Virus record (IMG/VR): IMGVR_UViG_3300025316_001101
Reading direction: 5' to 3' (one strand)
DNA: 64,000 nucleotides
Source: a virus
Taxonomy: Duplodnaviria > Caudoviricetes
The notes beneath the pieces are model-generated. The model was not told the DNA's origin. It was given only the letters and a program-made list of their open reading frames with translations, and ran no database searches. The position numbers were made by a program, and so were the translations under genes. Shown here in pieces: positions 176 through 270 of the stretch. Every line of letters starts with the position of its first letter. The stretch's first letter is position 1.

Positions 176-270
176 TACGCCCAGTAGGAATTGCACCTAC
201 GACCCTCGGTTTAGATTATGGGGCTGACTTGCCCCTAAGACCGATGCTCTATCTCCTGAGCTATGGGCGC
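176..270 (-). tRNA. tRNA-Arg(UCU)-like gene interrupted by a 22-nt hairpin in the anticodon loop
   Basis: GCGCCCA/TGGGCGT acceptor, GCTC-AGGAGATA-GAGC D arm, TCGGT/ACCGA anticodon stem, GTAGG-TGCAATT-CCTAC T arm; loop is 29 nt; removing 22 nt restores CTTCTAA. Confidence 0.8.

Follow-up and report, generated by a model that had tools for sequence, protein, structure and literature searches.

A tRNA-Arg(UCU) gene of a huge lake phage is interrupted by an insert of a conserved hairpin family

How should a tRNA gene be read when, in the genome of a bacterial virus, a 22-nt hairpin interrupts its anticodon loop? Bacteria and their viruses are thought, to our knowledge, to have only self-splicing (group I) tRNA introns; protein-spliced tRNA introns represent a hallmark of archaea and eukaryotes. 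The gene raising this question lies on the minus strand, at positions 176-270, of a stretch of 64,000 nucleotides (hereafter, the window), which is itself the minus strand of positions 163025-227024 of the 259-kb IMG/VR record IMGVR_UViG_3300025316_001101, belonging to a huge lake phage. The completeness of this record is estimated at about 50%, a complete genome of about 500 kb being expected, and ARAGORN recognizes in it 52 tRNA genes together with one tmRNA. In the following, coordinates refer to the window (minus strand marked as "-") unless they are preceded by "genome", in which case they refer to the whole record.

The whole gene (176..270, -), as delimited by Rfam RF00005, ARAGORN and folding, is 95 nt long and does not encode the CCA end. 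Read from 270 to 176, it forms a complete cloverleaf, with a 7-bp acceptor stem that includes a G1-U72 pair, a discriminator A, a D stem of 4 bp, an anticodon stem of 5 bp, a variable loop of 5 nt and a T stem of 5 bp. It scores 53.8 bits against RF00005 (E 9e-9 in the whole window, model positions 1-71), above the gathering score of 29 bits of that model, and it is thus a tRNA by this test; the alignment places 25 nt at the position of the anticodon loop where the model has three. The ARAGORN call spans 175-270 and, with introns allowed, reads tRNA-Arg(tct) i(35,22). The anticodon loop is 29 nt long, CUU-A-GGGGC-AAGUCA-GCCCC-AUAAU-CUAA, letter by letter as it had been written in an earlier note on this DNA, whose coordinates were also correct, and it attains the usual seven nucleotides only if 22 are removed.

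Three segments can be distinguished along the gene. The 5' exon (237..270, -) corresponds to tRNA positions 1-34 as read from the sequence and comprises the acceptor strand, the D arm, the 5' strand of the anticodon stem and C32 U33 U34, although an end one base earlier is also possible. It is followed by the 22-nt insert (215..236, -), made up of one leader base, a 5-bp stem, a 6-nt loop and a 5-nt tail, in which the hairpin proper (220..235, -) consists of the strand GGGGC at 235-231, the loop AAGUCA at 230-225 and the strand GCCCC at 224-220. The 3' exon (176..214, -) holds C35 U36 A37 A38, the 3' strand of the anticodon stem, the variable loop, the T arm, the acceptor strand and A73. The earlier proposal that removing about 215-236 yields a canonical CUUCUAA loop is borne out: taking away 215-236, or 216-237 with an identical product, leaves a 73-nt tRNA with this loop, which ARAGORN calls as a clean tRNA-Arg(tct).

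The minimum-energy fold of the unspliced sequence keeps both the cloverleaf and the loop hairpin, at -37.8 kcal/mol (z = -3.9), and none of 200 shuffled sequences folds as well. In this predicted fold the A/U-rich tail of the insert pairs back onto its first base and onto U33 and U34, and the 5-bp hairpin is thereby lengthened to an 8-bp stem with one bulged A, the anticodon being hidden. The T-loop, UGCAAUU, is rare. A T-loop UGCAA, with G at the site of the universal U55, accompanied by AG in the D-loop at the usual G18 G19, was seen in several phage tRNAs, namely the gene at 176-270 (-), those of loci L112 and L113 and that at genome 5204-5312, and this joint change may represent covariation of the 18:55 tertiary pair.

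The body of the gene is of the tRNA-Arg(UCU) type, in agreement with its previous description as argU-like. In its 5' half it matches, at 86-88%, genes annotated as tRNA-Arg in 64 records of T5-like Klebsiella or E. coli phages, and its D-loop ends in AUA, like that of argU-type tRNAs, with an A lying, according to our inferred numbering, where A20 is expected. Moreover, insert-free tRNA-Arg(UCU) genes of other phage contigs agree with it in T-loop (UGCAAUU) and T stem and have the loop CUUCUAA; the comparison of the body with the best 40 tRNA genes is biased by the way in which the loci were fetched. A second tRNA-Arg(UCU), canonical and with a different body, is encoded at genome 142986-143061, and the interrupted copy is therefore dispensable for decoding.

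An ortholog of the interrupted gene was sought in several ways. An anticodon-arm pattern with a gap of 0-30 nt retrieved 108 matches from viral contigs, and all of the 80 matches listed were insert-free; T-arm patterns retrieved from viral and metagenome contigs distant insert-free tRNA-Arg genes only, and a pattern requiring the insert gave 49 matches, all of them canonical tRNA-Arg genes or 3' fragments. No ortholog was found in the genome contigs, the downstream 353-aa protein, used as a marker, was absent from the viral contigs and from 10 relatives, and a megablast of the first 6 kb of the window did not match any phage record. The sole match of a pattern scan of viral contigs for an ortholog or a sister allele was G004, a relative of this phage described below. 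Since no ortholog of the gene was found in these contig searches, its own insert is without comparative support.

With introns allowed, ARAGORN detected in the 259-kb record three more genes that carry an insert of 21-22 nt: a tRNA-Leu(UAA) (genome 5204-5312), an initiator tRNA split within CAU (genome 139350-139443), which the program mislabels as Lys and which we assign on the basis of its 1:72 mismatch, and a tRNA-Val(UAC) of 95 nt with a 22-nt insert (16932-17026). The earlier note had likened the arginine gene to the last of these; the likeness holds for the length of gene and insert, but the layout of the valine insert is the opposite one, with the hairpin on the other side of the anticodon. 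The insert under study groups instead with those of tRNA-Leu and of the initiator tRNA, and not mainly with that of the valine gene at 16932.

Relatives of the phage were identified through its DNA polymerase, which has 42-54% identity with homologs in 11 contigs; the same search in the genome contigs retrieved only bacterial DnaE genes. One relative, G004 (77 kb, DNA polymerase 48% identical), is syntenic with genome 79.6-131.5 kb, with proteins 30-67% identical, and harbors two interrupted genes: a tRNA-Gln(UUG) with U1-A72 and G73, also mislabeled as Lys by ARAGORN, and an initiator tRNA with its insert at the very site that is interrupted in the initiator of this phage. Five of the six inserts have a common build, with 1-2 leader bases, a 5-bp stem, a 6-nt loop and a 4-5-nt tail. 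Their loops (AAGUCA, CAGUCA, CAGACA, UAGACG and AAAACC) have invariant A2 and C5, and their tails (AUAAU, AUGAA, UAGA, CAAG and AUGA) are purine-rich and pair back onto the 5' loop bases, leaving one bulged base on the 3' strand. The hairpin mini-insert family is defined in this analysis as inserts of 21-22 nt in the anticodon loop with this build, and the insert at 176-270 agrees with it in alignment, pair counts and folds alike; it has 13 of 22 bases in common with the leucine insert.

The pairing of the hairpin is maintained through base changes. Across the five inserts, 92% of the stem cells are paired and all five pairs change on both sides, values reached by none of 500 shuffles, and registers slid along the same sequences pair only 20-48%. 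These counts were made on equal-length 21-nt stretches (cores) of the five inserts, because MAFFT misaligned the full anticodon arms. A loose scan of the genome for the hairpin motif gave 11 matches, compared to 11.9 in shuffled sequences, so that the motif is not enriched; the matches with a strong stem were only three, all of them tRNA inserts. Among 1012 tRNA genes predicted by ARAGORN in about 2 Mb of loci, mostly from other phages, inserts of 21-22 nt occurred only in this phage and in G004; none of the roughly 900-950 genes predicted for the remaining phage loci carried one. As far as seen in these sequences, the family appears to be confined to this clade of huge phages.

Two DNA-level explanations of the hairpin were discarded. 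A genome-wide repeat or REP-like element is rejected since the motif is not enriched in the genome, and the ends of an IS605/TnpB element are rejected since the genome holds no other copies of the hairpin. As for TnpB (IS605 OrfB) itself, the record contains three to five such genes, two of them confirmed by Pfam; they are located at genome 1361-2575, 178580-179812 and 207564-208703 (the last at 18322-19461 of the window), with two further TnpB-looking ORFs.

On paper, every insertion in a functional tRNA gene can be taken out; thus, only its maintenance over time counts as evidence of splicing. In the two initiator genes, of this phage and of G004, the bases of the exon loop are identical in 7/7 positions, including the four unpaired 3' bases, whereas the insert agrees in 9/21 bases and the bodies are widely different. 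All five genes of the family retain the unpaired bases on the 3' side of the loop, and in each of them the anticodon restored by removal fits the identity marks of the body, that is, the long variable arm of the leucine gene, the U1-A72 pair with G73 of the glutamine gene and the 1:72 mismatch of the initiators. Furthermore, the interrupted leucine and initiator genes are the sole genes of their kind in the 259-kb record (the ends of its two other CAU genes are paired at 1:72). In this phage, the homolog nearest to the interrupted glutamine gene of G004 carries no insert, and insert-free relatives of the tRNA-Arg(UCU) also exist; judging from these sequences, the inserts are optional and seem to come and go cleanly.

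What the sequences show is the structure of the gene, its family, the covariation and the conserved exon loops; that excision and ligation take place, and which enzymes would perform them, we infer. According to the reading that we prefer, and whose chances of being right and of being wrong we hold to be balanced, the gene at 176-270 encodes a tRNA-Arg(UCU) precursor with a protein-spliced 22-nt hairpin mini-intron, possibly resealed by a phage ligase of the Rnl2 type. A protein endonuclease would recognize the hairpin and cut 1-2 nt on its 5' side and 4-5 nt on its 3' side; the two tRNA halves would be kept together by the anticodon stem, and an RNA ligase, either the phage Rnl2-type enzyme or one of the host, would reseal the 7-nt loop CUUCUAA, with the AAA_33 kinase joining the phage ligase if the ends needed healing. 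The conserved exon loops, the fit of the identity marks, the sole leucine and initiator genes and the clean gain and loss of inserts favor a matured precursor, without proving it.

The alternative that survives best, possible in our view but rather unlikely, is that the RNA is never spliced and works as a tRNA look-alike with a sealed, elongated anticodon arm, serving as a decoy or a regulator; as its tRNA body is kept, the 95-nt RNA could remain a substrate of RNase P, of the CCA-adding enzyme and perhaps of ArgRS or EF-Tu, and could be used, for example, as a decoy against host anticodon nucleases. In favor of this alternative, the minimum-energy fold has the anticodon masked by the hairpin, a canonical tRNA-Arg(UCU) is present in the record, and no splicing enzyme was found in this approximately 50% complete sequence. 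In addition, look-alikes of non-decoding RNA type abound in the genome: at 38689 and 38839 there are tRNA-like genes with two-base "anticodons", and tRNA-like genes with long inserts adjoin a Ro60 gene. A decoy, however, needs no letter-perfect split loop, and yet the unpaired 3' bases of that loop are kept in every gene of the family and the whole exon loop is unchanged between the two initiator orthologs; moreover, the interrupted leucine and initiator genes are the only ones of their kind in the record. Overall, the sequence comparisons lean towards splicing rather than mimicry.

Other tRNA-like sequences were recorded during the survey. In the window, the two genes in which ARAGORN finds only a two-base anticodon span 38689-38763 and 38839-38913 (-), two tRNAs of the amber-suppressor type (anticodon CUA) are located at 16289-16362 and 43227-43301 (-), and two Rfam tRNA matches without an ARAGORN call, of 38.7 and 32.4 bits, lie at 13273-13343 and 43660-43778 (-), the latter being 119 nt long. 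Loci L114-L128, from the phage records G001 (412 kb) and G002 (105 kb), hold tRNA-Met, Cys, Asn, Lys and amber suppressor genes with long, class II-like variable arms (86-93 nt), and the same two phages harbor tRNA-like genes with anticodon-loop inserts of 34-53 nt. The relative G009 has tRNA-like genes with inserts of 50-58 nt, and a 97-nt tRNA-like gene (L225:1475-1585; G009:C1:92480-92576) in which a long, fully paired arm replaces the anticodon loop.

Less probable still, and in our opinion improbable, is that the gene is a disabled, redundant tRNA-Arg copy, in which a selfish or accidental insertion of a hairpin at the DNA level is tolerated given the canonical copy; in a variant of this explanation, the insertion possibly shields the site from a homing endonuclease. 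The redundancy of the tRNA-Arg(UCU) and the lack of an ortholog in the contig searches agree with it, as does the genomic context: an HNH endonuclease gene of 186 aa (285..845, -; phrog_2255, E 1e-28; no Pfam match) ends 14 nt upstream of the tRNA, and HNH paralogs occur at dispersed sites within the tRNA arrays of the two phages. On the contrary, the body shows no decay, since all stems pair and it reaches its 53.8 bits despite the penalty for the insert; the full architecture, together with the 13 of 22 bases, is common to the leucine insert, and the family persists across a deep divergence with compensatory changes. HNH genes are otherwise not found beside interrupted tRNAs, and the immunity idea is weak because elsewhere they adjoin uninterrupted ones; the gene at 285..845 is treated as context only, any connection with the insert being unproven.

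The HNH genes form a small family scattered between the tRNA genes of this phage and of G004 (42% identity), with members at 31317-31709 (-), L227:7215-7658 (-) and genome 201858-202091, 199184-199333, 206481-206717 and 162814-162939, and their appearance is that of free-standing homing endonucleases resident in arrays of tRNA genes.

Returning to splicing, the insertion sites vary across the family, from 32/33 to 34/35, while the build is constant, which implies that the hairpin must be the reference point for the cuts. Excision of the three 21-nt inserts would release hairpins that are flush at the 5' end and have a 3' overhang of 2 nt, but for the two 22-nt inserts (Arg and Leu) the 3' overhang would be 1 or 3 nt; cut sites cannot therefore be placed uniformly across the family, which counts against splicing. 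A uniform excision of 21 nt would remove this discrepancy: a cut 5' of the leader base and one 2 nt 3' of its pairing partner fit all five inserts, as a single rule that holds only if 21 nt are removed from each. In that case tRNA-Arg (CUUUCUAA) and tRNA-Leu would mature with 8-nt anticodon loops, and the two could be four-base (+1 frameshift) decoders. We regard this as very improbable, since two tRNAs would need non-canonical loops and the insert-free relatives have the 7-nt loop CUUCUAA. The weakest reading, almost certainly wrong, takes the gene for a tRNA-Leu(UAG) whose intron occupies the canonical 37/38 position. ARAGORN without the intron option names it Leu(tag) because that position is forced, and G37 would suit a CUN reader. 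This reading is contradicted by the short variable loop of 5 nt and by the match of the body to tRNA-Arg genes, and it would put the 5' cut within the stem of the hairpin, which is the case in no other member of the family.

Which enzymes might perform the proposed protein splicing? The earlier note had pointed to the gene at 40346..41059 (-) as the joiner. Its 237-aa product is indeed an RNA ligase (PF09414, E 3e-25; phrog RNA ligase), but of the Rnl2 type with the nucleotidyltransferase domain only, and it is just a candidate for this role; no sequence match was found in the PDB and no close relatives in the viral contigs. The record also encodes an AAA_33 kinase (genome 256009-256521) with a weak likeness to the kinase domains of Pnkp, and a 136-aa ORF in a tRNA cluster (genome 141662-142072; L142:4662-5069) with two H-x-T motifs and a weak, below cut-off match to the 2H phosphoesterases (PF22547, E 0.004), which could be an RNA end-healing enzyme. 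The ligation half of the pathway is thus plausible. Regarding the cut, the 259-kb record, about 50% complete, contains no gene for the splicing endonuclease EndA (PF01974) or for RtcB, and none for RNase III, Tpt1, PIN, NYN or metallo-beta-lactamase (RNase Z-type) proteins; the cutting enzyme could come from the host or be encoded in the missing half of the genome. The two genes beside the ligase were rejected as nucleases, one encoding an AcrVA2-like protein and the other a protein that could not be modeled. The former (307 aa; 42082-43005, -) resembles the anti-CRISPR AcrVA2 family, with an Atlas feature score of 0.97 and a structure TM of 0.60.

We know of no described bacterial or phage splicing route that explains hairpin inserts of 21-22 nt. 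We propose, tentatively and with less confidence than we would need to call it probable, that this clade of huge phages has its own protein-based tRNA splicing of a non-bulge-helix-bulge type, in which the 5-bp/6-nt hairpin would give an endonuclease its measuring point and the anticodon loop would be resealed by an Rnl-type ligase of the phage. If this were true, it would be the first enzyme-catalyzed tRNA splicing described in the bacterial world, the hairpin would represent a separate class of mobile or optional introns, and it would offer a handle for finding the enzyme. What can be stated is that the gene at 176-270 is an interrupted tRNA-Arg(UCU) and a member of a conserved hairpin-insert family, which implies either that phage-infected bacteria have a new pathway for cutting and rejoining tRNAs or that there is a new class of tRNA look-alikes with a masked anticodon; either implication would bear on the control of translation by huge phages.

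It remains to compare the insert with known systems. The protein-spliced tRNA introns of archaea and eukaryotes rely on a bulge-helix-bulge, on the EndA/TSEN endonuclease and on the RtcB or Trl1 ligase, and short non-canonical introns occur in Thermoproteales. Like these introns, the insert is tens of nucleotides long, sits in the anticodon loop, contains no catalytic RNA and masks the anticodon by pairing with it, and its removal would need an endonuclease and a ligase. Unlike them, its cuts would be set by the hairpin and not at 37/38, the host is bacterial and neither EndA nor RtcB is encoded in the 259-kb record, which is about 50% complete. The bulge-helix-bulge consists of two 3-nt bulges on opposite strands, each with a cut site, separated by a 4-bp helix, and it was rejected since drawing it by hand fails for both pairs of cuts, the 4-bp helices not pairing; the loop folds instead as one continuous hairpin with a single 1-nt bulge. 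Two suppositions of the earlier note, that no bulge-helix-bulge is obvious and that the insert is too short for a self-splicing intron, are therefore confirmed, the latter by a length of 22 nt compared to the more than 200 nt of group I introns.

These self-splicing introns also interrupt bacterial and phage tRNAs in the anticodon loop, for example in tRNA-Leu(UAA), and the insert resembles them in occupying non-canonical sites such as 34/35 and in being optional between relatives; it differs in that 22 nt cannot hold a catalytic core. A cmscan of positions 100-350 with E up to 1 retrieved only the tRNA and two chance matches, with no ribozyme or intron family, and a group I intron or other self-cleaving RNA is rejected on account of this result and of the length. 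A hammerhead-like GUC site in the loop is likewise rejected since one family member has GAC, and a terminator is rejected since there is no U tract. With regard to RNase III, whose substrates are about one helical turn (about 11 bp) or more of double-stranded RNA cut in a staggered manner with 2-nt 3' overhangs, the excised hairpin would have a similar short 3' overhang, of exactly 2 nt in the three 21-nt members. The extended stem, however, has only 8 bp and a bulge, instead of the about 11 bp required, and the overhang for the gene at 176-270 would be 1 or 3 nt, as for the 22-nt inserts in general; for these reasons RNase III is unlikely to be the cutting enzyme.

Full-text literature searches brought up no account of 21-22-nt hairpin inserts within the tRNAs of phages or bacteria. 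The nearest published item that we found is represented by the "enigmatic" tRNA introns predicted in the Lak megaphages (Devoto et al. 2019, PMC6784885, Table S6), where one of the examples in that table is 93 nt long and another may itself encode a tRNA. According to what this source gives of them (PMC6784885), the Lak introns share with the inserts described here the presence in tRNA genes of huge phages, the optional occurrence between related genomes and a mechanism that is unknown for them too. Compared to the 93-nt Lak example (PMC6784885), the present inserts stand apart in their length of 21-22 nt, their single 5-bp hairpin and their conserved build.
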